Source of the DNA: Dehalococcoidales bacterium | GTDB taxonomy: Bacteria; Chloroflexota; Dehalococcoidia; Dehalococcoidales; UBA5760 | Length of the DNA stretch: 64,000 nucleotides | NCBI GenBank assembly: GCA_034414575.1 | Contig: DAOULZ010000011.1 | Span: forward strand, 14,318 to 78,317 | Direction: 5' to 3' | Part shown: positions 18,433 through 63,789 of the stretch, piece after piece | Layout of the letters: the number at the start of each line of letters is the position of its first letter | How positions within the stretch are numbered: the first letter of the stretch is position 1 | Program-made: the position numbers and the translations under genes | Notes under the pieces: model-generated | The model's input: the letters and a program-made list of their open reading frames with translations, nothing else | Told to the model about the DNA's origin: nothing | Database searches by the model: none

Positions 18433-18461
18433 ATTATAAACCAAAATAAGACAGATGTCAA
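18433..18461 (-). promoter_or_regulatory. consensus promoter for the epimerase/dehydrogenase operon (TTGACA-17-TATAAT on the - strand)
   Basis: The reverse complement of 18456-18461 is TTGACA and of 18433-18438 is TATAAT. The spacer is exactly 17 nt. Confidence 0.6.
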
Positions 18462-18478
18462 TATATATGGCTTTTATA

Positions 18479-18507
18479 TTGACAAAAGTCCAATTCTAGT
18501 GTATAAT
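18479..18507 (+). promoter_or_regulatory. consensus promoter (TTGACA-17-TATAAT) heading the + strand glycan genes
   Basis: TTGACA at 18479-18484, a 17-nt spacer, TATAAT at 18502-18507. It sits back-to-back with the - strand promoter. Confidence 0.6.
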
Positions 18508-50410: not shown

Positions 50411-51322
50411 CTACGCTACGATCGGGGCCCGGCAAATCAGCACCGAGTACTCGGCATGCCTGGCCACTGTCTCCGCCACATTCCCTAACAGGAATGACTC
50501 GATGCCGGTTAGTCCCCTGGCTCCGAGCGTAATCAGGTCAGGTTGGTATTCTTTAGCAACCGCCAGGACAGACTCGGCGGCTCCTCCCCGCATGACTAAA
50601 GATAACGTTTTGTACCGTACCCTGGAAAACTGCCGTTCGCTTTCGGTCAATATTTTTCGAGCCTCTTCTTCTTCGGCTGCCTGAAGTTGGGCAACCAGCT
50701 CTTGATTAGCTTTAAGGTCAAGCGTCGGCGTTCTGATCACCGCTTCAATATGCGATTGAACCGCCGTCATCAGGATAACCTGACTGCGCGGTAGGGGAAG
50801 ACTCAGCAAAAACTGGGTTGCTATCTCTGAATAGCTGGAGCCGTCGGTAGCAAGCAGGACACGGCTGACGGAAGAAGTCTCCTTCTTAACCAGTAGAACA
50901 CTGGCATCGGTATGTCTCATAACCTTCTGGGCGACACCGCCGAGAAAGAACTGCGGAGAGTCGGTCAGCCCCTTGGCCCCCATCAAGATGAGGGAAGCAT
51001 CGTTTTCTTTAGCCGCCCTCAGAATTGATTCAGCCGGATTCCCCCAACGCACCAGGCTTTCCAGTCTCAGCCTGGTGGTACCAAGTTCCTGAATTGCCAT
51101 TTCCACCAAATTGGCAGCCTGTTCTCGCTGTCTTTCCTGCCTAGCGCTCCTTGCTGAAGCCTTACCTCTAAACAGGTCAAGACTCAACCCACCCAGGAAG
51201 CTGTGGTCAGGCACGACCGTCATAACCGTAGCCTGAGTCCCGCGAGGCAATTTGAGTGCCTTAAGCATACTTATAGCCATCTGAGAATATGGTGAACCGT
51301 CAATTACCATAAGAACCTTCAT
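50411..51322 (-). CDS. tandem universal stress protein (two USP domains)
   Basis: 303 aa. Two copies of the MKVLMVIDGS.../...LILMGAKGLT...GGVAQKV pattern are present. Confidence 0.8.
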   Translation of the reverse strand: MKVLMVIDGSPYSQMAISMLKALKLPRGTQATVMTVVPDHSFLGGLSLDLFRGKASARSARQERQREQAANLVEMAIQELGTTRLRLESLVRWGNPAESILRAAKENDASLILMGAKGLTDSPQFFLGGVAQKVMRHTDASVLLVKKETSSVSRVLLATDGSSYSEIATQFLLSLPLPRSQVILMTAVQSHIEAVIRTPTLDLKANQELVAQLQAAEEEEARKILTESERQFSRVRYKTLSLVMRGGAAESVLAVAKEYQPDLITLGARGLTGIESFLLGNVAETVARHAEYSVLICRAPIVA

Positions 51323-51394: not shown

Positions 51395-53437
51395 TCACCT
51401 CTCTAACTCTAAGGATGGTATAGCCTCCTTTACTGTGGCAACTGCCTCCGAACTAATTGCCTCCGCCGCCTTTAAGATACCCTCAGCCGCTTCAGCCGCT
51501 GCTGATTCCTCCGATACCCCGGTCTGTTCGGCTATTTCTTTAGCCGTCTCTATTGTCTTGGCGGTGGCGGCCGCCAGGTCGCCATGCGCCTCGGCAGTCC
51601 CCTGAATGATACCCTGGCTTGCCCCCAGTATGGCATCATACGGGTCCGCCCCCGCCCGGGTGGAGGCTTGCACCACACCTGTCACCACGGCAGAGGCCAC
51701 CTGCCCAACATCTACGGGTTTATCATCGGCAACATGGACAGCACCGCGCGCCATCTGCCGTGAAATTTCTGCTCCGTGCACCCTTACCTCTGCTTCCTTA
51801 CCCTTCCATATACCGTTCAGACCATTCTCCAAGGACTTGGCGATTCTCTTAGTTACCCGACGACCACGCATGGCGGCCATGGTAGCCACCCGGCCAATCT
51901 CCGCAATCTGGTAGGCGGTAACACCCAGGGCAGCATCCAGTCCTACTGGCACTTTCCTTAAATTGCCGAAGGGGAAATTGGCAGCCAGGTTAAAAGCCGG
52001 TACTGAGCTCATAGGTCGAGAGAGCTCCCGCGTCGGAAACATTAGTGATTCTAGCATTACTTCGCGACTTACTTCGCCTTCCTCACGCAGTCTCGCCAGC
52101 ATTGTCAGGGTAATAAGCCCGATAACAAAGGCAATGCCAAACAAAAAATCAAAACCAATCATACTGACGACTGGCAGCTGAGTAGAACCGGACGGAGCAA
52201 GCCAAGTGAGGGTCAGGTCAAATTGACGCGTGCTGAAGAAGGTGGCTAGTAAGCCCCCTACCAAAGGCCCCAAACCAGCTCCCAGGTTGGTGGCTAGGGA
52301 TGAAGTTGCTAGATAAGAGGTTGCCTCTCCTTTAGGGGCCATCTTCAAACCGATAGTGCCGATGGTGAGGGTTACCCCGGCGTTGGCAATACCGGCGAAT
52401 ATATGCAATATAAATAATAGGGGCATGGTAAGGAAGTATCTTTCCGGCATGGTGGTAAATATCCAGCCCATAATGACGAGCAGATAGAGCGAGGCGCATA
52501 TGGAGAGGACTACCTTATTGCCAAAACGGTCGACAAAATTGCCCCACACCCGCAGAAACAGTATGTTGAAGGCTTGCCCGATGATGCTGAGGACGATGAC
52601 CCAGGTTAGGGATAGCCCAAGCCGCTGGAGCATGTAGACAGCAAAGAATGGCACCGCCAGATTCAGGGCAAAGTTCCAAGAGAACAGAAACTGTATCAGC
52701 TGCCTGAAGTTTACGTCTTTAAGGGGTGCCGTAACTTTCTGCCAGAGGGAAGGTTGAGATCCGGTTACCGGCTGCATTAACGGCTCGGGCATACGCGACA
52801 TGAAGATGGGACTTAAAAGCCCGAGGCTCAAAGCGCCGAAGAGAAGCACGTAGGTATAGCCGAAGATAGCACTTCCTGCGGCGGCATGATTAAGCCAGTA
52901 ATCCACAAACAGGGCGGCTGATAGGCTGAAGGCGACACCGGTAGCCGTGGCAAAGGCCAGTCGTCTTGAAAAAAACCTGCCCAGTATTGCCTGTGGGACC
53001 AGGTCGCGAATCCAGCCATTCCAGGCAGCGTTGGTAGAGGCGTGAAAAAGGCCGCGGATGGCCATCAGTGCCAGCAGCAGTGATATCGCTCTCGCTCCAG
53101 GAATGGCCATAAATGTCGGGATGAGGGCGATTGGTACCCAGAACGACTGGGCGATAAACCAGCTAATTACCGCCATCGCCTTACGCTGCCGGAATTTTTC
53201 CACTAGGGAGATAGCGGGTAGCTGCAGGATTTGCATCAGAAATGGGAGCGCTGCCAGAACACCGATGTGCAGACTATCGGCGCCCAGCGCTAGGGCATAG
53301 GCTGCTAGGAAGCCGCTGGTGGTAATACTGTTAAAACCCAGGGACGCAGTCCCCTCAAGGGTTAACCAGCGCAGGCCGGAGGTTAACTCCGGCTCGGAGA
53401 TAGTGGGTTTAGGCTTAAAAATCTGGAGCAACTTCAC
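51395..53437 (-). CDS. MFS transporter with a ~200-aa C-terminal soluble Ala-rich extension
   Basis: About 12 TM helices span the first ~470 aa. A non-membrane tail follows, ending ...AAATAKTIETAKEIAEQTGVSEESAAAEAAEGILKAAEAISSEAVATVKEAIPSLELER. Confidence 0.7.
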   Translation of the reverse strand: MKLLQIFKPKPTISEPELTSGLRWLTLEGTASLGFNSITTSGFLAAYALALGADSLHIGVLAALPFLMQILQLPAISLVEKFRQRKAMAVISWFIAQSFWVPIALIPTFMAIPGARAISLLLALMAIRGLFHASTNAAWNGWIRDLVPQAILGRFFSRRLAFATATGVAFSLSAALFVDYWLNHAAAGSAIFGYTYVLLFGALSLGLLSPIFMSRMPEPLMQPVTGSQPSLWQKVTAPLKDVNFRQLIQFLFSWNFALNLAVPFFAVYMLQRLGLSLTWVIVLSIIGQAFNILFLRVWGNFVDRFGNKVVLSICASLYLLVIMGWIFTTMPERYFLTMPLLFILHIFAGIANAGVTLTIGTIGLKMAPKGEATSYLATSSLATNLGAGLGPLVGGLLATFFSTRQFDLTLTWLAPSGSTQLPVVSMIGFDFLFGIAFVIGLITLTMLARLREEGEVSREVMLESLMFPTRELSRPMSSVPAFNLAANFPFGNLRKVPVGLDAALGVTAYQIAEIGRVATMAAMRGRRVTKRIAKSLENGLNGIWKGKEAEVRVHGAEISRQMARGAVHVADDKPVDVGQVASAVVTGVVQASTRAGADPYDAILGASQGIIQGTAEAHGDLAAATAKTIETAKEIAEQTGVSEESAAAEAAEGILKAAEAISSEAVATVKEAIPSLELER

Positions 53438-53507
53438 GAAGACCAGACCTCAGGTTTAAATTACGGCCCTCTCTGCCTCGTCGAAATAGCTATGATAGCT
53501 AACGGCG

Positions 53508-53813
53508 CTACGGCTTTTCAGTTTTTGGCTGTTGCTTTCTACGCTTCCAACCCAGCATCACTAGCAGCTCGCCTACTTCAGCATCACTTATTTCGTCCTT
53601 AAGGGGCATATCGGGGTGAATCTTATACTTATTCTGCCGACCGACTTTCGTTTTTGATATATACCCCGCTTCCTCAAGGTCCATAATTATGCGGTGGGCC
53701 GTCCTCTCTGTTACCCCAATAGTGTCCCCAATCTCCCGGGCGGTAAGATTCGTGTGTTTAGCAATAGTCGCTAAAACCAGTCCATGATTCGTAATGAAAG
53801 CCCACTCACTCAT
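53508..53813 (-). CDS. small winged-HTH transcriptional regulator, copy A
   Basis: The ORF track starts at 53858. I prefer ATG at 53813 (MSEWAFITNHG...), which has AGGAGG 5 nt upstream and matches the start of copy B. HTH region: LTAREIGDTIGVTERTAHRIIMDLEEAGYISK. Confidence 0.8.
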   Translation of the reverse strand: MSEWAFITNHGLVLATIAKHTNLTAREIGDTIGVTERTAHRIIMDLEEAGYISKTKVGRQNKYKIHPDMPLKDEISDAEVGELLVMLGWKRRKQQPKTEKP

Positions 53814-53960
53814 GCTAACCTCCTTCAAAAAATAGTTATAAAAAGCCCTAAAAACCACTTGACAAATTGCGGAATTTAGTTATAATAATATTCTAGAAAT
53901 GTATTTCTAGTAATAGTTATGTTGTTATATGATACCAGACATTTAACGAAAAATCAAGCC
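53536..53960. repeat. direct repeat copy A (regulator gene + promoter/operator block)
   Basis: Aligns by eye with 61096-61510. 85 of 100 positions match in the hand-aligned stretch 53541-53640 versus 61101-61200. There is one ~11-nt indel just upstream of the start codon. Confidence 0.85.
53859..53957. promoter_or_regulatory. face-to-face promoter pair flanking the palindromic operator CTAGAAAT-GT-ATTTCTAG
   Basis: P(+): TTGACA at 53859-53864, 16-nt spacer, TATAAT at 53881-53886. Palindrome at 53893-53910 (8+2+8, perfect). P(-): TTGATT (reverse complement of 53952-53957), 17-nt spacer, TATCAT (reverse complement of 53929-53934). Confidence 0.6.
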
Positions 53961-54161
53961 CCATAACAGTAGTTTGCGACAGGAAGTGAAACAAGAAATA
54001 ACATGAAAAGACCTGACCAGAGTAAGGCTAAAACAAAGAAAATCGAGGTTAAAGCTAAAAAGAAGGTAAGCTAACTATCGGGCATAGGATCCCTGCTTTC
54101 CCAGCCTCCCAGACAAGAAAACCGACATAAAGGGCTTCAGTCAGAAAAGAGAAATGTAAAA

Positions 54162-54626
54162 ATGGCTAAGACTTACAAGAAAATACTGGTACCATTGGAT
54201 GGTTCACAATTAGCCGAATGGGCACTTGAAGATGCTAAGGCAGTAATATCAGGCAAGAAAGACTGCTTGATGACGCTGCTCAGAGTAGTTGAGCCGCTAT
54301 TAGTAGCTCATCTGGTCGATTATGTAAACGTTGAAGAGTATCGAACTGCCGAGGAGAGGAACGAGGCTGAGGCGAAAGACTACCTCCTCAGCATTGCGAA
54401 GGAGCTAACCAGGGCTGGTCTGAGGGTTAAGATTGAACTAGTGGTTGGTGGTGCGGCAGATAGTGCGATACTGAACTATGCCAAGGAAAATAAAATAGAT
54501 CTCATCGTCATGAGCACACATGGAAGGTCAGCGGTCCATCGCTGGATCTTTGGTAGTGTCGCACAGAGAGTACTACGTCATTCTCCCATACCTGTATTAA
54601 TAGTGCCGCTCTCTGGCTTTCGATAA
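54162..54626 (+). CDS. uspA: universal stress protein (single domain)
   Basis: KILVPLDGSQLAE...DLIVMSTHGRSAVHRWIFGSVAQRVLRHSPIPVLIV. Confidence 0.85.
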   Translation: MAKTYKKILVPLDGSQLAEWALEDAKAVISGKKDCLMTLLRVVEPLLVAHLVDYVNVEEYRTAEERNEAEAKDYLLSIAKELTRAGLRVKIELVVGGAADSAILNYAKENKIDLIVMSTHGRSAVHRWIFGSVAQRVLRHSPIPVLIVPLSGFR

Positions 54627-54763
54627 ACTAAATGATTTCTTGTCTAGAAGGCTCCTCGCCACTGCCATTTAAAAATACTATACATCGAATCAAGGATTAC
54701 AGCATAAACTCGAAAATAAACATAAAGATGACTTAATAACAAAATAACTAGAGGAGGATGACA

Positions 54764-56745
54764 ATGAATAAAAGAAAATTTATTTCTACGGCGCTATTAC
54801 TAACTTCGCTCTCACTTGCTTTTATCTTCATGACCGCCAAGCCAGTTTTTGCCGCTTCGGTAACCTTATCGCCGGACCAGGGCAAAACAGGGACAACAAC
54901 ACATGTCAGCGGAGCCGTTTTACAGCCTCTGCCTCCTACACAATCTATTTCGCCTATAATACTTCCCATGAATCGAGGACGAGCGCTACGGTTGCCAGCG
55001 ATGGCAGTATATCTCGCTCTATTACCGTTCCGGAAGTACCAGCCGGCTCATATACCGTTAGAGTAGCCACTTCTTCCGAATCTGCCAGCGATACTTTCAC
55101 GGTAACACCACAGCTCGATCTCAGTAAAACTTCGGTCGTTGTAGGCGAACAGGTTACGATTAATGGCACCGGCTTTAGAGCCAGCCGTAGTGTTACCATC
55201 AGGTTTGATAATCGAACCGCCGTGACCACGTCTACCAATTCTAAGGGTAGCTTTAGCGTAAAGTTCAGCATACCGGAGAGTAGTTACGGCAGTCACGAGA
55301 TTACCGCTGATGACGGTACTAATCGGCTATCGATCAGCGTATCTGTTAAGCAGTCGGTTACCATTTCCCCTAAGTCCAGGTCGGTCGATACTAAGCTGAC
55401 CGTTACGGGAACAGGGTTCAGGGATGAGCGGCCAATAACCATTACCTTTGACGGTGACGAAGTTGATACCAGTCCTGCCTCGGTCGACACCGATGAGGAT
55501 GGAAGCTTCACCGCTTCATTCCAGGTACCCACCTGCGTTAATGGCACGGTAGAAATAGTGGCTGGTGATGGCAAATACACCGCCACCGCTGAATTTACCA
55601 TTCGTGCCAGCATTACTCTTGACCCGGGCTCGGCCAATGTTGGGGATACGGTTAGTATTATCGGGAATGGGTTTCGCGCTAACCGGCTGATAATACTAAC
55701 CTTTGACGATGAGGAGGTCGACAGTATACCAGCAACCATTCGCTCAGACAGTAAGGGCTGCTTTGAAGTCGACTTTACCGTTCCCCCCAGCACCGATGGT
55801 ACTCACGAAATAAGGGCGGATGATGATGCTGAGGTTGCTAAGGTTAACTTCACTACTTTGTCGGCGATCAGTCTCAGTCCGACCGGCGGACCAATCAATG
55901 CCGAGGTCACGATAGAAGGTACCGGATTCGGTAGCGGCAGGATCGTGACCATCGAATTTGATGATGACCACGTTAGGACCAGCGCCACTGATGCCGAAGG
56001 GAGTTTCGTGACTGAATTTGTGGTTCCACAGACCAATAGCGGTAAATATAACGTCGTTGCCAGCGACGGCGTAACTACTGCCGGTGCCGTTTTTACCGTT
56101 ACTACCAGCATCGAGGTTACACCGGTAACCGGTCATGTCGGCACCGCCATCACGGTAACTGGGACCGGTTTTACTGGTGCCGTAACTGTTAGGTACGATG
56201 GCTCAGTCGTTGCCACTACTACCGCCGATGCTAACGGAGCCTTTTCTATATCTTTTAGTGCTCCCCAGAGCATCCACGGTCATCACACGATCACCGTAAG
56301 TGGCGTGATTAACACTATTGAAGCTACCTTTACCATGGAATCAGACGCTCCTTCGACACCGACACTCCTGTTGCCGGAAAGCGGTGTCAGACAGAATTCA
56401 CGACCGTCGTTTAGCTGGGGAGTAGTAAACGATCCCAGTGGTATCACCTATACACTGCAGATAGCTATCGATGACAGTTTCAATACTTTGCTGCTGGAAA
56501 AACCAGGGCTAACCCAGTCTCCATACAGGCTTGCCCGCGAAGAAGGACTCAGCTCAACCGATAGCGATGCCCCGTATTACTGGCGGGTTAAGGCGGTTGA
56601 CGGCGCCTCAAACGAAAGTGCCTGGTCAACGCCACGTTCCTTCTATGTCAGATTTCTTCCGCAGTGGGCAATATACGTCATTATAGCGGGAGTTGCAGTT
56701 GCAATAAGTGTAGCCGCTACCCGAAGAGTTTACCGACGCAGGTAA
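54764..56745 (+). pseudogene. cell-surface protein with six IPT/TIG-like Ig domains + FN3-like domain + C-terminal TM anchor, interrupted by a 1-nt frameshift near 54917
   Basis: ORFs 54758..55066 and 55222..56745 are one gene. The downstream frame is already open from ~54775. Inserting one G at ggagccG^gtttt gives ...HVSGAGFTASASYTIYF, matching the G.GF motif of the other five repeats (INGTGFRAS, VTGTGFRDE, IGNGFRAN, EGTGFGSG, VTGTGFTGA). Signal peptide ...AKPVFAAS. C-terminal IYVIIAGVAVAISVAATRRVYRRR. Confidence 0.75.
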
Positions 56746-56820
56746 GAGAGATGGTAAGTAACCATAAGGACCGGGAAGCGGGACCTTAGGTTGAGATAGT
56801 TTACACAGGAGGTATTTACA

Positions 56821-57312
56821 ATGGCAATGGAGAGACGGAGAAGAGATAGAAGCTTGGTTCCCTGGAGACCATTCCAGGACTTACAAGAGATGGAACGGCG
56901 CTTTGACGACATCTTCGGCCGGCCGTTCTGGCCCATGATGTGGAGGCGTATCCCTACAATTGAACCAGGCTGGCTGCCGGCTATAGAGGTGTTTGAGAAG
57001 GAGGACAGGTTTGTGGTGAAGGCTGACCTCCCTGGTATGAAACAAGAGGATATAAGCGTCTCAGTTGTAGGTGATACACTGACTATCAAGGGGGAGAGAA
57101 AGTCTGAGACTGAGGTCAAGGAAGAAGACTATCATTGCTGTGAGCGTTCGTATGGTAGCTTCTCCCGTTTGATATCTCTTCCCTCCAACGTGGATGCGAA
57201 AAAGATCGAGGCTAGTTATGCGGAGGGAGTGCTAGAGATTATTATTCCCAAAACCCCAGAGATTAAACCGAAGAAGGTCACAATAACAACCAAGAAGAAA
57301 GAAGCAAAGTAA
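56821..57312 (+). CDS. hsp20: Hsp20/alpha-crystallin small heat-shock protein
   Basis: PAIEVFEKEDRFVVKADLPGMKQEDISVSVVGDTLTIKGERK...GVLEIIIPK. AGGAGG upstream. Confidence 0.9.
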   Translation: MAMERRRRDRSLVPWRPFQDLQEMERRFDDIFGRPFWPMMWRRIPTIEPGWLPAIEVFEKEDRFVVKADLPGMKQEDISVSVVGDTLTIKGERKSETEVKEEDYHCCERSYGSFSRLISLPSNVDAKKIEASYAEGVLEIIIPKTPEIKPKKVTITTKKKEAK

Positions 57313-57533
57313 ATTGGATGGAGACTATTGTCCCGCTTCCCATGTCCCCTTCTGAAACTAGTCATGGATGTGGAAGATATGTGTGGTGAGACAGCGATGG
57401 ACGGATAGTATTTACGGAACCAACATTGTATGAAATCATCGAACGAGATCTCGACCTATGATTCATGAATATGATAGATACGCTACGATTTCTTCAACAA
57501 CAAGTAATTTGCCGCGTTTAGAAAGGTAGTGAA

Positions 57534-58007
57534 ATGGATAAAGATAGAGTCAGTGAACCTGGTGCGGCTGAGGCTAAAAAGAACGACAGAATACACATGA
57601 AACCCCTTCCGGATATTCTGGATGAGATGGATGCTAATATTCGAGCCGCAGCTGAGGCGGCCAGAAGGGCAGAGGAGGCAGCCAAGGTCGCGAAAGGGGC
57701 TGCTGCTGCCGCCACTGCGGCTTCGAAGGAGGCGCAAGGTGCTGCGGAGAAAGCAGCGGAGGAGGCTACCAGACAGGCTCGTGAAGCCTTGGGGGAAGCA
57801 GCGAAAAAAGCTAGCGAGGCAGCCGAGGATGCAAAGAGCGCAGCCAATGAAGCTGCCAGGGAAGCAACCAAGAAGGCAAGAGAGATAGCCGAAGAGGTGA
57901 AGGATCTGGCTCTAGAGCTGGCCTTGGTGATCAGAAACGCTAACATACATAGCTCTGAAGCCTTTGTAAAAGAGATTGATGCTTTTAGGAACAAATGGTC
58001 AAAGTAA
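57534..58007 (+). CDS. Ala/Glu/Lys/Arg-rich helical protein, short paralog (157 aa)
   Basis: It shares the N-terminal block RIH.KPLPDILDEMDANIRAAAEAARRAEEAAK with the 59175 gene (1 difference in 33 aa). No TM segment. The - strand ORF 57518..58159 is its compositional shadow. Confidence 0.65.
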   Translation: MDKDRVSEPGAAEAKKNDRIHMKPLPDILDEMDANIRAAAEAARRAEEAAKVAKGAAAAATAASKEAQGAAEKAAEEATRQAREALGEAAKKASEAAEDAKSAANEAAREATKKAREIAEEVKDLALELALVIRNANIHSSEAFVKEIDAFRNKWSK

Positions 58008-58199
58008 ACTGTAGATTCTTTTTGTTCTGGAAATACGGTATCGAAAATGTATATATGTTTCACGGCACGACTAGAGGTAATCCCGCAGGCTAATTTGTGT
58101 CTAGATTGCAAGGCTAGTCGAGCAAAGAATGACCTGCCCTCGATATTTGAAACAGGCAATCTTAGGTCAAACGCTTAAAAGAAAGGAGTCGATATTGAG

Positions 58200-58667
58200 A
58201 TGAAACTTCGATTAGGGTTGGCACTATTACTGATATCCGTACTGGTATTGAGTGTCGTAGGATGTAATAGTGGGGCGTCTGGCGTAAATCTGGTTGCTAC
58301 CATGCATGGCTGCGGTGGTAGCGGCAGTGGTGCCGGTGAGATCCCCACGCATTACGAGTTAAGTTGTGAAACCACTATCTGTAACCAGGGGAGTGGGACA
58401 GCTAAGGATGTAAGGGTATTCGTTGAACCATCATCGACCAATCAGGTCTTACAGACGATGGAAGTGGAGCCGAGCCAAAAGCAAAAGCCCGTCACCCTGG
58501 AAGCAGGTGAATGTGAAACCTTCGTGGTTAATTGGGAATACGATTACACTGGTACTTCCAGCGAGGAAGTTTACCAATTAATCAATCAATATGTACTTCA
58601 TGCCACCTGGACAGACAAAAACGGTAAACAAGTCACAAAGGTTCTCGGTGAAGGAGGTTCTCATTGA
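58200..58667 (+). CDS. lipoprotein, beta-sandwich-like
   Basis: Signal peptide plus lipobox LSVVGC; 155 aa. AAAGGAG upstream. Confidence 0.65.
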   Translation: MKLRLGLALLLISVLVLSVVGCNSGASGVNLVATMHGCGGSGSGAGEIPTHYELSCETTICNQGSGTAKDVRVFVEPSSTNQVLQTMEVEPSQKQKPVTLEAGECETFVVNWEYDYTGTSSEEVYQLINQYVLHATWTDKNGKQVTKVLGEGGSH

Positions 58668-58680
58668 AAGGAGGTAAAAC

Positions 58681-58923
58681 ATGACTAAATCAACACCCTA
58701 CGAAATTATTGAAACAAGGAATAGGCCGAAAGCGCAGAAAAGGAGACTAGGGTTCTCAGGGACATTTGAAGAAGCAAAAATTAGGGCTCAGGAAGAGGCG
58801 AAGAAAAACATAGGTGTTCGATATTCCGTATTCCGTGAGGGTTCTTCTGTAGCCGAATTTCAAGCTTACTATAGAAAAACCGTGAAATGTCCCAAGTGTG
58901 GCGAAATAATCCCCATAGAGTGA
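58681..58923 (+). CDS. small basic protein with a C-terminal CxxC knuckle
   Basis: 80 aa. AAGGAGG lies 6 nt upstream. Ends KCPKCGEIIPIE. Confidence 0.5.
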   Translation: MTKSTPYEIIETRNRPKAQKRRLGFSGTFEEAKIRAQEEAKKNIGVRYSVFREGSSVAEFQAYYRKTVKCPKCGEIIPIE

Positions 58924-58975
58924 GCGGTCAGCTCGTTTTCTTATACCACGGACACAAAAAACGTAAACCAGACTA

Positions 58976-59004
58976 TTGACAATCTGCAAATTGTCTATTA
59001 AAAT
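58976..59004 (+). promoter_or_regulatory. promoter TTGACA-17-TAAAAT containing the inverted repeat GACAAT-N6-ATTGTC
   Basis: TTGACA at 58976-58981, a 17-nt spacer, TAAAAT at 58999-59004. The inverted repeat spans the -35 box and the spacer. It lies ~170 nt upstream of the long Ala-rich gene. Confidence 0.5.
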
Positions 59005-59174
59005 CAACTCCTCCAAGTCGGAGCTTGTAGTAATCAATAGCTCAGCCGACCCTTCTAGTAAATGGGTGCAAAGGAGGGTGTGCCTATTGAAGCATTCGCA
59101 AGTTACAAAGGCTGCAACTTTTCTATTTGATACTCTCTCTACTTCCTCTACTATCTCTTGTAAGGAGGGCTGAA

Positions 59175-60989
59175 GTGGCTAAGAACACAGGCGAAACGCC
59201 CGGTGAAAAGGGGCCAGGATATGTTGATAGAATACATGCCAAACCCCTTCCAGACATCCTCGATGAGATGGACGCCAACATCAGAGCCGCCGCTGAGGCA
59301 GCTAGAAGGGCTGAGGAAGCAGCTAAGGCAGCCAAAGGGGCCGCTGGCGCTGCCACCAAGGCGTCTGATGAAGCTGCCAAACGGGCTGAAGAGGCGCGCT
59401 TAGCTGGAGAGAAGGCGGCAGCAGATGCTACCAAAGCCGCCAGCGAAGCAGCTGCCAGAGCTGAGGAGACAGCGCGGGCAGCCAGGGAAGCAGCCGAGGA
59501 AGCTGCTAGGAAAGCCGATGAGGCAGACAAGGGCACTAGAGAAGCGGCTGAGGCATTCAGGCGTGCGGCGGAGGAGGCTGCCACTAGAGCCGATGAGGCA
59601 AGCAAAGCGGCCGTAGCGGCAGCCAAAGCAGCCGTAAAGCAGGCTGAAGAGGCAGCCGCTGAGGCAGCCAGAAGGGCTGAAGAAGCCGCCACTAGAGCCG
59701 ATGAGGCAGCTGAGGCAGCCACCCGAGCTTTAGAGGAGGCGGCCAGAAGAGCCGAAGAAGCCGCTGCTAAAGCTAGTGGCAGAGCTGACGAGGCAATCAT
59801 AGCTGCTGAAGCAGCCACCAAGGCATCGGAGGCAGCTAGCCAGGCTGCCGCGGCGGCAACCAGAGAGGCACAAGAATCTGCCAGAAGAGCCGAAGAAGCT
59901 AGCTTAGCAGCACAACAGGCTGCTGAAGGTGCTAGTGAAGCCGCTGAAGGAGCCGCCCAACGGGCTGAAGAGGCTGCCTTGAAAGCTGAGGAAACAGCTA
60001 GTGCCGCGAAGTATGCTGCCGAAGAGGCTACCAAAAAGGCGGAGGATGCAGACCTAGCAGCTAGAGAATCGGCACTGGCGGCAACTAAACTTGCTGAAGA
60101 GGCCGCTAGGAGAGCTGAGGAGGCAGCTTTGTCGGCAAAAGCAGCGGTTGAAGCAGCTATCGAAGCTGCTAATGCTGCCATTAAGATGGCTGAGGAGAGC
60201 ACTAAAGCCGCCAAGGATGCTACCGAAGAGGTCGCACTTAACCTTACCCCGGAAACCGCTCGACGGGCTGACGAGGCTGGTAGAAAAGCCAAAAGAGCAG
60301 CGGCATCCGCCTTCAGGGCCGCGGAGAAAACTACCAGGGAAGCTGAGCTTGCTGACACAGCCGGGGACATCGCTATCGCCGCTGCCGAAAAGGTATCAGG
60401 GCCGCTCGCTGAGCGAGTTGATGAGGCGGGTAGAGATGCCAAAGCGGCCGCTGAAGCTGGATTTGAGGTAGCTGACAAGACTATTGGAGCAGCCGAGCAG
60501 GCAGATATCGCCGGGGACGATGCCGTTGGCGCTGCGGTTAGGGGTATCGAGCAACTGATAGGTAAGGCAGAGAGTGCCGCCAGACAGGCTAGCGAAGCAG
60601 GCGTAATTGCCGTTGGTGAAGCCACCAGAAGGGCCGATGAAGCAACCAAAGCGGCACTGGCAGCAACAAAGGCATCGGAGGCTGCTGAAGCCGGTGTTAG
60701 AGCAGTTCGAGAGGAAGCCACCGCAGCTCAGAAAACCGGCCTGAGGGCTGAGGAAGCAGCCGCTAAAGCAGCTAAAGCAGCCGAGAGTGCCGTAAAGGCA
60801 TCTGAAGAGTTAGCGGCTGAAGCTGCCGAGAAGGCTGAAGAAGCAGCCGCAAAGTTTGACCTCGTGCCGAAACTGGTGAAGGAAGTACTTGGTTCCCGAC
60901 AGTTCCTGCTCATTATCATACTAGCTGTCGTCGGGGCAATCTTTGCTGCCGTGGCCATTAGCGTGGGCATAAGCTCTCTCGGCCCGTAA
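59175..60989 (+). CDS. Ala/Glu/Arg/Lys-rich helical protein, long paralog, C-terminal tail anchor (~604 aa)
   Basis: The ORF track starts at 59127. I prefer the in-frame GTG at 59175 with AAGGAGGG 5 nt upstream, which gives an N-terminus parallel to the short paralog. There is no signal peptide. The C-terminus QFLLIIILAVVGAIFAAVAISVGISSLGP is a single TM helix. Confidence 0.7.
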   Translation: MAKNTGETPGEKGPGYVDRIHAKPLPDILDEMDANIRAAAEAARRAEEAAKAAKGAAGAATKASDEAAKRAEEARLAGEKAAADATKAASEAAARAEETARAAREAAEEAARKADEADKGTREAAEAFRRAAEEAATRADEASKAAVAAAKAAVKQAEEAAAEAARRAEEAATRADEAAEAATRALEEAARRAEEAAAKASGRADEAIIAAEAATKASEAASQAAAAATREAQESARRAEEASLAAQQAAEGASEAAEGAAQRAEEAALKAEETASAAKYAAEEATKKAEDADLAARESALAATKLAEEAARRAEEAALSAKAAVEAAIEAANAAIKMAEESTKAAKDATEEVALNLTPETARRADEAGRKAKRAAASAFRAAEKTTREAELADTAGDIAIAAAEKVSGPLAERVDEAGRDAKAAAEAGFEVADKTIGAAEQADIAGDDAVGAAVRGIEQLIGKAESAARQASEAGVIAVGEATRRADEATKAALAATKASEAAEAGVRAVREEATAAQKTGLRAEEAAAKAAKAAESAVKASEELAAEAAEKAEEAAAKFDLVPKLVKEVLGSRQFLLIIILAVVGAIFAAVAISVGISSLGP

Positions 60990-61058
60990 TATAGTAGCGG
61001 CCCATACGCGGGATGTTCAAAGGAGGAGGGGAAAGAGCCAACGTAACCCTGGAGCAGG

Positions 61059-61373
61059 TTAAATCACACTACTGCTTCTCGGTTTTAGGTGTCTTTTTCT
61101 GCGCTTCCAGCCTAGCATCACCAGCAGCTCACCTACTTCGGCGTCGCTTATTTCGTCCTTGAGCGGCATGCCGGGGTGGATTTTATACTTATTCTGCCGG
61201 CCGATTTTAGTTTTTGATATATACCCCGCTTCCTCGAGGTCTATTATTATACGATGGGCCGTCCTCTCGGTTACCCCAATATTGTCTCCAATTTCCCTGG
61301 CGGTAAGGTTCGGGTGTTTAGCAATAGTTGCTAAGACCAGTCCATGGTTCGTAATGAACGTCCACTCACTCAT
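61059..61373 (-). CDS. small winged-HTH transcriptional regulator, copy B
   Basis: ATG at 61373 (MSEWTFITNHG...) with GGAGGA upstream. There are 6 differences from copy A in the first 93 aa, and the C-terminal tails diverge. Confidence 0.8.
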   Translation of the reverse strand: MSEWTFITNHGLVLATIAKHPNLTAREIGDNIGVTERTAHRIIIDLEEAGYISKTKIGRQNKYKIHPGMPLKDEISDAEVGELLVMLGWKRRKRHLKPRSSSVI

Positions 61374-61510
61374 TTTGATCCTCCGGCGAAACATTTTCCA
61401 AAAACCACTTGACAAACTCTGAAATTTATTTATAATAATTTTCTAGACATATATTTCTAGTAACATATTTGTTGTAATATGATACCAGAAACTTATTAAA
61501 AAATCAAGCC
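61096..61510. repeat. direct repeat copy B
   Basis: See copy A. The offset is 7560 nt in the CDS part and 7550 nt in the promoter part. Confidence 0.85.
61409..61507. promoter_or_regulatory. second face-to-face promoter/operator block
   Basis: P(+): TTGACA at 61409-61414, 16-nt spacer, TATAAT at 61431-61436. Imperfect palindrome CTAGACATATATTTCTAG at 61443-61460 (2 mismatched positions). P(-): TTGATT (reverse complement of 61502-61507), 17-nt spacer, TATCAT (reverse complement of 61479-61484). Confidence 0.6.
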
Positions 61511-61611
61511 TCGGCAAATGGTTCTAATTGGTAGGCAAACGTGATGGAGGGAAGGTAGCCTGGGCAGTAAGGCCTGGATTATACAGCTCTCAAAATGGAA
61601 GAGGTGATGAA

Positions 61612-61920
61612 ATGATTAGAGTGACGAGTTCGTTAGCGGAGAAAATGCTGGGTAATGTCCCTGAGGATAAGCGCTTTTGGTGCTGCGACGGGAAGGTAAT
61701 CAAAAACCTGAGGGAATTAGTGACGTTCCTCCACAGTATGAGTGAAGAGACCTTTCGCTACCATTCGACCGAGACCGGCAGTGACTTTGTTAATTGGATC
61801 AGAGACGTAATTGGTGATGAAAAGCTCGCCAGGGATATACAAAGTAGCCATAACCGGTTTCAGGCAGCGAAGAGGCTGACTGACAGGATCGCCTGGCTGG
61901 AGAGTAAGATCGTAGCTTAA
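61612..61920 (+). CDS. hypothetical 102-aa protein
   Basis: The ORF track starts at 61528. ATG at 61612 has GGAAGAGGTGA upstream. Sequence: MIRVTSSLAEKMLGNVPEDKRFWCCDGKVIKNLRELVTFLHSMSEETFRYH...DFVNWIRDVIGDEKLA. It is the first gene downstream of the copy-B P(+). Confidence 0.5.
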   Translation: MIRVTSSLAEKMLGNVPEDKRFWCCDGKVIKNLRELVTFLHSMSEETFRYHSTETGSDFVNWIRDVIGDEKLARDIQSSHNRFQAAKRLTDRIAWLESKIVA

Positions 61921-62034
61921 GCAGGCCAGCCGGCTCCGGCAGTGACTGATAGGCCCGGGCCACACTGAAGGTAAACTAAACGATGACAGAGGTTTCACAT
62001 ATCAGCAGCAACTGAATCATAGAGGGAGGAACAT

Positions 62035-62364
62035 GTGATAAACCTGTGCTTAAGGAAAAAGAGTGAAGCCAAGAGACTATCTGAGTCGGTGCAGAATTAT
62101 CTGAGGCGACAGTTTATGCTTCAGCGAGAATACATCGAAAAGCTCAGGTGTTTTGAAATAGATGGCCTCTTCCGTGAACAGCCAGTAAGACGAATTCGCA
62201 TCTTCAATCCGGATCTAGCGAAAAAGGATAGCCTGGCTATTCGTACTAATTCGGACCTGGAGCTCCACCCGGAGATACTGGTCTTCGAGGGGCATATTGA
62301 CGCCGAGGGTAAAATCTACTTTGCTGACCGGAGGTCAACGTCAGGAAAGGCAGGCTGTAAATAG
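62035..62364 (+). CDS. hypothetical protein
   Basis: 109-aa ORF with a GTG start and no recognisable motif. Confidence 0.35.
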   Translation: MINLCLRKKSEAKRLSESVQNYLRRQFMLQREYIEKLRCFEIDGLFREQPVRRIRIFNPDLAKKDSLAIRTNSDLELHPEILVFEGHIDAEGKIYFADRRSTSGKAGCK

Positions 62365-62442: not shown

Positions 62443-63789
62443 GTGAACACATCACCGAGGGCCACAAAAAGCCGGTCAGCATATGGTAGTCAAGCAAAAA
62501 CAGCCAGTGAAACACACGGCGAGGGTGTCGCCGAAGAGGAACCTCCTGGCAAAACTGACACCTTCAGTAGTTTTGACGAAGAACCCCCGGGTAGAAGCGC
62601 CGCCAAACGATATAGGCTTTTCGGTCACGTACCGGATAACGCCTGGAACGATTGGAGGTGGCATTTTCGTAACCGCATCACCACGATTGATGAACTGGCA
62701 AACTTTATCCCGCTATCAAGCGAAGAGCGGGCGCAGCTCAAGCTGGTAACCGTGAAGTATCCCCTTTCCATTACTCCCTATTACCTTTCGCTGATAGACC
62801 TGAACGACCCCGACGACCCGATTAGAAAACAGGCGATTCCCTCCATCCTGGAGATAACGATGGGTATGATGGGCCGGGAAGACCCCCTCGATGAAAAGGG
62901 AGACACGGTCGTTCCCGGACTGGTTCACCGCTATCCTGACCGGGTCTTAATGGTACTTACCGATATCTGCCCCATGTTCTGTCGTCACTGCACTCGCAAG
63001 CGGGAATGGCAAAGTGGCGGTTGGGTGCGGACTCCAGCCGAGATTAGAGCCATGCTTGATTATATTCGGCAGCACAAAGCCATCAGGGATGTCATCATCT
63101 CCGGCGGCGACCCGCTGACGCTCTCTACGCCCCGGCTGGAGGGGGTCATCTCCCGAATTAGGGCTATAAAGCATGTTGAAATCATCCGTATCGGTACCAG
63201 GTTTCCGGTGGTATTGCCACAGCGTATTGACCACGAACTGTGCCGCATGCTGTCGCGATACAGCCCGATATGGCTTAACACGCACTTTAACCACCACCAC
63301 GAGATTACCCCGGAAACCGCCGCCGCCTGCGACCGTTTGCTCCGCAGCGGGGTTCCGGTTAACAACCAGTCGGTGCTCCTGCGTGGGGTGAACGACAGCG
63401 TTACCGAGCAGATGAGGTTGTGCCATGGGCTGCTCAGGATTAAGGTGCGCCCCTACTACCTGTTCCAGTGTGATGAGGTACAGGGCACCGAGCACCTGCG
63501 TACTACGGTGGAGGTTGGGCTCAACATCATCGAGGGGATGCGCGGACACACCTCGGGGCTGGCGGTGCCCACCTTCGTTGTTGACCTGCCTCAAGGGGGC
63601 GGTAAGGTGTCCCTGCAACCGGACTACGTTGTCGCCAAGAAGAGGGGAGAACTTATGCTCCGGAACTACGAGGGCCGACTCTTTCGCTGTCGGAATCCGA
63701 AGGTGTCGGCAGACCTAGAGCCGATACCGGAACCACTGAGGAACCTGGATAATTCCGACGCCGGGTTACTGGTAGAAACAGGAGTCTAA
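62443..63789 (+). CDS. kamA: lysine 2,3-aminomutase family radical SAM enzyme (KamA/AblA-like) with a ~60-aa low-complexity N-terminal extension
   Basis: Radical SAM CPMFCRHCTRK, WNDWRWHFRNRI, ISGGDPL and HFNHHHEIT; 448 aa; GTG start. Confidence 0.85.
   Translation: MNTSPRATKSRSAYGSQAKTASETHGEGVAEEEPPGKTDTFSSFDEEPPGRSAAKRYRLFGHVPDNAWNDWRWHFRNRITTIDELANFIPLSSEERAQLKLVTVKYPLSITPYYLSLIDLNDPDDPIRKQAIPSILEITMGMMGREDPLDEKGDTVVPGLVHRYPDRVLMVLTDICPMFCRHCTRKREWQSGGWVRTPAEIRAMLDYIRQHKAIRDVIISGGDPLTLSTPRLEGVISRIRAIKHVEIIRIGTRFPVVLPQRIDHELCRMLSRYSPIWLNTHFNHHHEITPETAAACDRLLRSGVPVNNQSVLLRGVNDSVTEQMRLCHGLLRIKVRPYYLFQCDEVQGTEHLRTTVEVGLNIIEGMRGHTSGLAVPTFVVDLPQGGGKVSLQPDYVVAKKRGELMLRNYEGRLFRCRNPKVSADLEPIPEPLRNLDNSDAGLLVETGV

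Follow-up and report, generated by a model that had tools for sequence, protein, structure and literature searches.

In a 64,000-nucleotide (nt) stretch of a Dehalococcoidales genome (GenBank assembly GCA_034414575.1, contig DAOULZ010000011.1; the whole stretch is referred to below as the window), two copies of a gene for a small winged-helix regulator are each adjoined by an intergenic block that probably serves as the control region of a regulator-plus-cargo cassette. In this arrangement, two promoters would face each other around the operator of the regulator, the outward promoter would be repressed by the regulator, and the two promoters would be mutually exclusive. In other words, the promoter of the regulator gene would be the one closer to the divergent cargo, and vice versa. 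Below, P_out denotes the outward (+ strand) promoter, P_reg the inward (- strand) promoter and O1 the main operator; +1 was placed 7 nt past each -10 hexamer, and all start sites are predicted.

At the first copy, P_out (TTGACA-16-TATAAT) matches the consensus at 12/12 positions and points away from the regulator gene, which lies on the - strand. P_reg (TTGATT-17-TATCAT) points toward that gene and matches at 9/12 positions, with a TGn extension in addition. By consensus match the two promoters are thus unequal: 12/12 plus an A-tract for P_out vs 9/12 plus TG for P_reg. The predicted transcripts overlap by 30 nt (starts at ~53893 and ~53922), and inside this overlap lies the perfect palindrome CTAGAAAT-GT-ATTTCTAG (53893-53910), contained in the gap of exactly 42 bp between the two -10 hexamers. 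Both promoters and the overlap of their transcripts across the palindrome had been claimed in an earlier note on this DNA and were found where that note had put them. The same is true of the recurrence of the arrangement at 61409-61507: the hexamers and spacer lengths of the second copy are identical, and its palindrome (CTAGACAT-AT-ATTTCTAG, 61443-61460) has one mismatch. The window holds 4 exact matches to TTGACA-N16-18-TATAAT vs 0.02 expected, the TG-extended P_reg pattern occurs twice vs 0.02 expected, and the palindrome pattern, with up to three mismatches allowed, matches at just these two loci. On the + strand upstream of the outward genes of both copies (53400-54300 in copy 1) we found no promoter-like site besides P_out, and no terminator-like site was found in 53400-54300. 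For a regulator transcript starting within 53814-53858, which the earlier note had named as incompatible with its model, the sequence offers no acceptable proximal promoter. One candidate of this kind, TTGTCA-17/18/19-TTTATA/TTATAA/TATAAC, was rejected: it failed the -10 criteria, is absent from copy 2 and reaches at least 9/12 in about 5/60 loci. As a separate observation, the window holds two further perfect 12/12 promoters placed back to back at 18433-18507 (- strand, 18461-18433; + strand, 18479-18507), between a 314-aa - strand open reading frame (ORF) and a small XRE-type helix-turn-helix ORF starting at ~18564. This pair has the ordinary divergent layout and provides a useful contrast within the same genome.

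The comparison of the two copies points to selection on the arrangement. The repeat unit consists of the regulator gene (87% nt identity) and a 111-bp block at 53850-53960 and 61400-61510 (84%). From the ATG up to the block, the copies cannot be aligned and differ by a 10-bp indel, and beyond the P_reg -35 nothing aligns. The claim that the flanks have drifted therefore holds on that side only, as on the opposite side the block is flanked by the regulator gene, which is conserved. Since 16/36 four-fold sites (44%) and 29/93 third codon positions (31%) differ between the gene copies, the duplication must be old. Within the block, differences between copies amount to 0/24 in the four hexamers, 0/9 in the A-tract, 2/22 in the 22-bp operator and 16/53 in the spacers and gaps. 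Thus, the spacers have changed at roughly the silent rate, whereas the hexamers and the operator have been held. For a broader view we aligned the two window copies with 16 close relatives, 14 of them from a metagenome scan (48 loci) and two (L001 and L002) from the genome scan described below. In these 18 sequences, mean column identity is 1.00 for the P_out -35, 0.99 for the P_out -10, 0.97 for the P_reg -35, 0.94 for the P_reg TGn and -10, and 0.92 for O1. The corresponding values are 0.83 for the A-tract, 0.72-0.82 for the spacers, 0.65 for the stretch between P_out and the ribosome-binding site (RBS), and 0.52 past the P_reg -35. With one exception, the P_reg spacer is constant in length and variable in sequence. 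Two promoters and an operator would be expected to leave such a footprint, whereas an RNA stem would not. It might be argued that no selection is involved at all and that the block reflects a recent duplication plus promoter-like strings that arise easily in AT-rich intergenic DNA. After all, there are just two copies in the window, and weak promoter matches are frequent (3-5 promoter-like sites per 900 bp vs 1.4-1.8 in shuffled sequences). However, silent sites have diverged by 31-44% with hexamers and operator nearly unchanged, and these elements persist in about 55 distant loci besides the 18 close ones, which makes this explanation scarcely credible. The earlier proposal of selection on the layout is thus supported, with constraint falling on the hexamers and the operator and the layout recurring in most homologous Dehalococcoidia loci.

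The recurrence is best seen across the regulator family. Our search for regulator homologues gave 638 matches, and all the named ones come from Dehalococcoidia or Dehalococcoidales metagenome-assembled genomes (MAGs). The genome scan yielded 80 loci, that is, 82 with the two window copies. A P_out-type promoter (called at 9/12 or better, most at 11-12/12) is present in 60/82 loci, where it lies 22-113 nt before the regulator start, faces away from it and invariably has a spacer of 16 nt. It is followed by an O1-like palindrome, which begins 2-4 nt past the outward -10, or 12 nt past it in one group. Beyond the operator, an inward promoter-like site with a score of at least 10 is found in 53/59 loci vs 4/59 on the opposite strand, and the observed score is 10.3 vs a mean best score of 5.7 in shuffled sequences. 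The strand bias is sharper for exact TTGACA, which occurs beyond the operator in the inward direction in 49/59 loci and in the outward direction in 0/59. Most lineages outside the window clade have this exact hexamer at the place where the window clade has the TTGATT of P_reg. The predicted 5' overlaps range from 26 to 123 nt and fall into classes of ~30, 35-54, 107 and 118-123 nt. In several lineages the P_out -35 ends just 22-25 nt before the regulator start codon, and the regulator mRNA must therefore begin beyond P_out there. Since the layout is carried by 9/11 regulator clusters at 80% identity and by 23/28 at 90%, it does not represent one lineage counted repeatedly. When the regulator was looked up by exact sequence, one Logan contig of 2 kb (L129) was obtained, which has the same layout, including a universal stress protein (Usp) gene on the outward side.

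The strand-specific excess of exact TTGACA also bears on the idea that the block is an RNA element (a riboswitch, an attenuator or a protective 5' hairpin) in the outward leader, with the - strand hexamers being coincidental. It is true that the palindrome would fold into a hairpin of 7 bp right where the outward RNA begins, and the leader is long (170-270 nt). Nevertheless, we consider this very improbable: there is no Rfam match up to E 1 over 53300-62000, folding energies do not differ from those of shuffled sequences, the predicted structures differ between the copies, and hexamer blocks joined by spacers of fixed length and free sequence are the signature of promoters rather than of paired stems.

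Two further observations concern the family promoters. In L113 (~-110 to -50) and L097 (~-110 to -40) part of the P_out block is tandemly duplicated, the ATTATAA...TTTGTCAAG segment being present twice, which suggests that the control region is prone to local duplication. In many of these Dehalococcoidia promoters (L014, L042, L005 and others), the -10 has the form TGnCAnAcT (e.g. TGCCAGAAT, TGCAAAACT) and is accompanied by an exact TTGACA -35; this may be a lineage-typical variant of the extended -10.

The operator is a 22-bp palindrome with the consensus TACTAGAAATATATTTCTAGTA and the core GAA-N6-TTC, its information residing mainly in C3, G6, A7, A8 and their mirror positions. A scan of the 64 kb with a position weight matrix (PWM) gave high scores only at the two sites beside the two regulator copies (Table 1). 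When further operators were sought in the window, including the regions upstream of the HSP20, LEA-like and other Usp genes, only two shuffle-level PWM matches were obtained; there is, therefore, no evidence of a wider regulon inside the 64 kb. The strong sites being found only next to the regulator gene copies, the operator would appear to belong to the adjoining regulator. In many relatives, the inward -10 is covered or immediately followed by a second operator (e.g. TTCTAGTAATATATTTCCTGTA). The spacing of such sites is strikingly regular: all 24/24 pairs of operator-like sites within one intergenic region, from at least nine lineages, are spaced at exact multiples of 14 bp (14, 28, 42 or 56), and the two CTAG cores within an operator are likewise 14 bp apart. 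The 42 bp between the -10 hexamers of copy 1 are filled exactly by half-sites at 53893, 53907 and 53921 (the last one weak). The possible vestigial second operator of this copy, which falls on the same lattice and shares a CTAG half-site with O1, ends 2 nt short of the P_reg -10. There is also covariation between protein and DNA. Among L001-L079, a TER-T-AH recognition helix (residues ~35-40) goes with CTAG-core operators (34/56 half-sites) and a TER-A-AH helix with CATG/CTGG cores (18/26). This covariation may reflect specificity, with which it is consistent, but it is confounded by phylogeny (two main clades) and we did not count it as independent evidence.

If the elements work as predicted, P_out, made strong by the A-tract and the consensus -35 and -10, would drive the Usp gene in copy 1, and the DUF5752-like gene, the gene for a 109-aa protein (p109) and the KamA-type aminomutase gene in copy 2. 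Transcripts from the weaker P_reg would cross the operator and P_out, cover the regulator gene and, in copy 1, extend into the genes for the MFS transporter and the tandem Usp. The regulator, presumably acting as a dimer, would on O1 span positions ~-3 to +19 of P_out (the operator centre being at ~+9.5) and turn this promoter off. The same complex, at ~+11 to +32 of P_reg (centre at ~+21.5), would damp P_reg by roadblock or partial occlusion and so provide negative autoregulation. With the regulator off the DNA, P_out would be on, and the nature of the cargo suggests osmotic or ionic stress as the signal. Polymerase at the strong P_out would then exclude polymerase from the weak P_reg, and departures from P_out would sweep over P_reg. 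As a result, regulator synthesis would drop while P_out is on, making induction sharper and possibly hysteretic. An open complex covers roughly -55 to +20; with the starts only 30 bp apart, both promoters would hence not be occupied at once. For this reason, the head-on collision of polymerases envisaged in the earlier note would better suit relatives with 107-123-nt overlaps, whereas the 30-bp start distance in the window favours mutual exclusion by competition or occlusion. Its other suggestion, that one dimer represses both promoters, is geometrically possible, yet many relatives have a separate second operator at the inward -10.

The complementary 30-nt 5' ends of the two mRNAs may add an antisense layer to this scheme. 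Taken further, both promoters might be real but coupled mainly via RNA, the paired 5' ends being degraded or blocking translation, as in IS10 RNA-IN/RNA-OUT or pCF10 Qs/Anti-Q, and polymerase interference being secondary. Overlaps of 26-123 nt are predicted in nearly all loci with the layout, and the overlap of IS10 RNA-IN/RNA-OUT is of similar length. Moreover, truncated antisense RNAs contribute in the Qs/Anti-Q system of pCF10 (PMC4519249). Still, we give predominant RNA coupling little chance. The overlap is remote from both RBSs: ~70 nt separate it from that of the regulator gene, and 170-270 nt from the start codons on the outward side. Its length varies across lineages, whereas the operator register and the hexamers are conserved. 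Nor do the leaders have a significant or shared fold, with z-scores from -1.9 to +0.6 and structures that differ between the copies.

Several considerations weigh against our reading of facing, mutually exclusive promoters. The layout is absent from 22/82 loci, and the family counts are inflated by relatedness. In one subgroup (L004-L013, L019) the upstream gene is on the same strand and a single conventional promoter of the TTGACA-17-(TG)CAAACT type, ~100 nt upstream of the regulator start, is followed by a conserved hairpin leader, GAAAGgcAATACTGGAAAcaatgTTCgcCTTTC, that holds the operator-like CTGGAA-N6-TTC. P_reg matches the consensus at only 9/12 positions (plus TG) in the window clade. 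The second operator, which scores below 9 bits in copy 1 and 10.8 bits in copy 2, is degenerate in that clade and has a half-site in common with O1. O1 itself, centred at ~+21.5 of P_reg, is poorly placed to repress this promoter directly. The start sites, the binding and the interference are predictions from the sequences of uncultured MAGs. Caution is also advised by Ecl18kI, whose promoters as predicted from sequence proved wrong once the start sites had been mapped (PMC2760811). Finally, the - strand hexamers TAGAAA (53909-53904, inside the operator) and TATTAT (53887-53882, over the P_out -10) have a nominal score equal to that of P_reg.

These last hexamers are the basis of another explanation, in which the region is an ordinary divergent bidirectional promoter. 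The regulator would be transcribed from the - strand TAGAAA-16-TATTAT with a start at ~53875, there would be no transcript overlap, and the TTGATT...TGGTATCAT block would be the remnant of a second operator, a site for another factor or an auxiliary upstream promoter. The candidate scores 9/12 in both copies, and near-symmetric -10 regions firing both ways are common in bacteria (PMC12825309, PMC10268837). An operator placed on one -35 and on the other +1 is a textbook way for a single dimer to shut off both promoters, and the inward -10 region doubles as an operator in many relatives. On the other hand, the would-be -35 has no TTG core and there is no TG extension. The hexamers are a by-product of O1 and the P_out -10, so that their conservation is uninformative, and where a lineage has 12 nt inserted between O1 and the outward -10, the would-be -35 no longer exists. 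This explanation accounts neither for the distal -35 conserved at 0.97 beside a flank at 0.52, with a spacer of fixed length and variable sequence, nor for the exact inward TTGACA that is present in 49/59 loci at variable distance and has no outward equivalent. We regard a bidirectional promoter as the main competitor of our reading, but as less likely.

The regulator itself is an uncharacterised mini winged-helix protein and not a canonical MarR. The start of copy 1 is ATG 53813 (MSEW...), as set by homologue alignment, by which the GTG start in the mechanical ORF list was rejected. Pfam matches of copy 1 are marginal and cover ~46 residues each: MarR_2 at 29.0 bits (cut-off 27), MarR at 26.0 (24.6) and HTH_24 at 27.6 (21.9); those of copy 2 are similar. 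In the AlphaFold model, helices H1-H3 and the wing are accompanied by one C-terminal helix and a tail of basic character; the predicted local distance difference test (pLDDT) score is 72.7 overall and ~88 in the core. According to this model, the protein, at 101-104 aa, is devoid of the N- and C-terminal dimerisation helices of MarR (~140-150 aa). A sequence search of the PDB gave weak winged-helix matches, with MarR proteins at E 0.003 or weaker. In the Foldseek search AspA came out on top (E 4e-4, template modelling (TM) score 0.59-0.66), followed by MarR, ArsR/SmtB and RbkR, all of them generic winged-helix families. Neither search placed the regulator in a family. In PHROGs we found no phage repressor family, only weak generic winged-helix matches (best 31.6 bits, unknown function) and one Usp match.

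Table 1. Positions in the window of the control elements and genes of the two regulator copies (RBS, ribosome-binding site; PWM, position weight matrix; a dot marks features without strand)
Feature	Copy	Position	Strand	Remarks
UP-like A-rich tract AAAAACCAC	1	53850..53858	+	directly upstream of P_out -35; same in both copies; putative function
P_out -35 TTGACA	1	53859..53864	+	
P_out -10 TATAAT	1	53881..53886	+	predicted start ~53893
Operator O1, 22-mer TTCTAGAAATGTATTTCTAGTA	1	53891..53912	.	core palindrome 53893-53910; PWM 28.5 bits
Possible vestigial second operator	1	53905..53926	.	<9 bits; weak evidence
P_reg extended -10 TGgTATCAT	1	53929..53937	-	TATCAT at 53934-53929; predicted start ~53922
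P_reg -35 TTGATT	1	53952..53957	-	
Regulator gene	1	53508..53813	-	101 aa, winged-helix; RBS GGAGG 53819-53823
MFS transporter, 680 aa	1	51395..53437	-	downstream of regulator; Pfam MFS_1
Tandem Usp	1	50411..51322	-	after MFS transporter; NCBIfam Usp
Universal stress protein gene	1	54162..54626	+	first recognisable gene past P_out; Pfam Usp E 6e-32
P_out TTGACA-16-TATAAT	2	61409..61436	+	UP-like tract 61400-61408; predicted start ~61443
Operator O1 TTCTAGACATATATTTCTAGTA	2	61441..61462	.	PWM 24.8 bits
Weaker operator-like site overlapping O1	2	61455..61476	.	PWM 10.8 bits
P_reg TTGATT-17-TGgTATCAT	2	61479..61507	-	predicted start ~61472
Regulator gene	2	61059..61373	-	104 aa
DUF5752-like	2	61612..61920	+	outward side
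p109, 109-aa conserved protein	2	62035..62364	+	outward side; unknown function
KamA-family radical SAM aminomutase	2	62443..63789	+	outward side

The genes around the two control regions are consistent with a common theme. The regulator of copy 1 and the MFS transporter are probably on one transcript, and the regulator-MFS-Usp order is kept in many loci. More than 20 loci carry the p109 and KamA-like pair in divergent orientation to the regulator; the best score of the aminomutase is to lysine 2,3-aminomutase AblA (467 bits, under the cut-off of 525). The commonest order is KamA-family aminomutase <- 109-aa protein <- regulator control region -> regulator -> 680-aa MFS transporter -> tandem Usp, intact in several MAGs (L001, L002, L034, L047, L050), and this is likely the ancestral unit. 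In the window the unit is split: copy 1 keeps regulator-MFS-Usp, with a Usp gene on its outward side, and copy 2 keeps p109 and the aminomutase, with the DUF5752-like gene before them. Since each copy retains one arm, the regulator and its control region seem to have been duplicated as a module. In other lineages, divergent genes were identified by tblastn with the window proteins and by Pfam on selected ORFs, after naive ORF calls had been ambiguous. There, the nearest long divergent outward ORF encodes a TreT-like trehalose synthase, a GT4 glycosyltransferase, an EamA transporter, Usp or a Kef-type cation/proton antiporter with a TrkA domain. Taken together, cargo and neighbours suggest, on annotation alone, osmotic or general stress adaptation. 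Our search of the literature on DUF5752 and on Dehalococcoidia osmoadaptation regulators found nothing relevant. Within the outward leader of copy 1, a 23-codon Lys-rich ORF (MKRPDQSKAKTKKIEVKAKKKVS, 54004-54075) has a counterpart in none of the fetched loci and is probably no gene. It is also worth pointing out that a stress island (56821-60989) lies between the two regulator copies. It includes HSP20 (56821-57312) and two repeat proteins rich in Ala, Glu and Lys (57534-58007 and 59127-60989), in which internal direct repeats are numerous. These two are possibly LEA-like and received no Pfam or NCBIfam assignment.

Facing-promoter switches are rare but not novel as such. P2 Pe/Pc and 186 pR/pL are coliphage switches of the same type. 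In 186, a strong promoter suppresses the weaker facing promoter that drives the repressor gene, and the repressor acts at the strong promoter, so that repression there relieves the interference on the weak one (PMC3675496, PMC4519249). The region described here resembles these switches in its facing opposite-strand promoters with overlapping 5' ends, as predicted by sequence and conservation, and resembles 186 in the weaker promoter, by consensus match, driving the repressor gene. Unlike in 186 and P2, the neighbours are chromosomal stress, osmolyte and transport genes, with no temperate-phage context. A single small winged-helix regulator takes the place of the CI wheel and antagonist (Apl/Cox) of 186: no antagonist DNA-binding protein on the outward transcript was found among the family matches, the first outward genes being different (Usp, DUF5752-like), although p109, which has no family assignment, could conceivably be a cryptic regulator. 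The operator, in contrast to 186, is downstream of both predicted starts, and the starts are 30 bp apart, which would favour mutual exclusion over collision.

A second precedent is offered by restriction-modification systems. In Ecl18kI, the facing promoters of divergent genes are coupled by direct competition of promoter complexes (PMC2760811). As in Ecl18kI/SsoII, the genes are divergent, each predicted promoter is nearer to the other gene, with the inward one inside the outward leader, and a single inverted-repeat operator of an autoregulator would lie between them. In Ecl18kI, the operator serves to keep polymerase off the M promoter, which is that of the regulator itself, and the R promoter is activated indirectly in this way (PMC2760811). 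In our case the polarity would be reversed: the operator lies on the cargo promoter start, and repression of the cargo is to be expected. The regulators are unrelated as well, a 101-aa winged helix here and the N-terminal domain of a methyltransferase there. In the prgQ/prgX system (PQ/PX) of the Enterococcus faecalis plasmid pCF10, convergent promoters with interference and antisense RNA give a switch-like, bistable response (PMC4519249). Shared with pCF10 would be a regulator gene and a target operon read from convergent promoters with overlapping 5' regions and a repressor at the target promoter. That system differs, however, in serving plasmid conjugation, in its peptide-sensing RRNPP regulator, in an overlap much longer than 30 nt and in its documented truncated antisense RNAs. 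MarR/TetR divergent units likewise have a small winged-helix autoregulator divergent from its targets and a palindromic operator over the target promoter, but their promoters point apart and their transcripts do not overlap, whereas here each promoter would lie beyond the other. As to the protein, AspA, the centromere-binding protein of the Sulfolobus plasmid pNOB8, is of similar size and has a winged helix with one C-terminal helix. The identity is ~20%, though, with modest scores and a medium-confidence model (pLDDT 72.7), and AspA works in plasmid partition. AspA spreads along DNA, which is the basis for a possible link to the 14-bp lattice. In the literature searched we found no description of this Dehalococcoidia switch. 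The kind of switch is therefore known; what appears to be new is that it would be chromosomal, family-wide in Dehalococcoidia, controlled by a mini winged-helix regulator and associated with an unexplained 14-bp operator lattice.

It is tempting to speculate further that we are dealing with a portable, self-contained switch that has repeatedly been attached to different osmoadaptation genes in Dehalococcoidia. The regulator, whose 101 aa leave no space for a ligand-binding domain but include a basic tail, would sense cytoplasmic ionic strength directly through salt-sensitive binding, side by side on the 14-bp lattice of half-sites between the two -10 hexamers, and mutual exclusion would turn this graded signal into a hysteretic on/off response. 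The chances that this extended scenario is correct are slim.

Interference-coupled facing promoters have been well analysed in a few switches of mobile elements, namely 186, P2, pCF10, IS10 and some restriction-modification systems. Here, the layout seems to be an inherited, selected design of chromosomal regulator units in a poorly understood and mostly uncultured class. The natural variants, which differ in start distance (26-123 nt) and in the number of operators on the 14-bp register (one to four), form a series suited to asking how these two variables determine the way a switch behaves. Since the elements are near the Escherichia coli consensus, such questions would be testable in E. coli. 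For the Dehalococcoidia themselves, the candidate regulator and the candidate motif may provide a first handle on the control of compatible-solute and stress genes.

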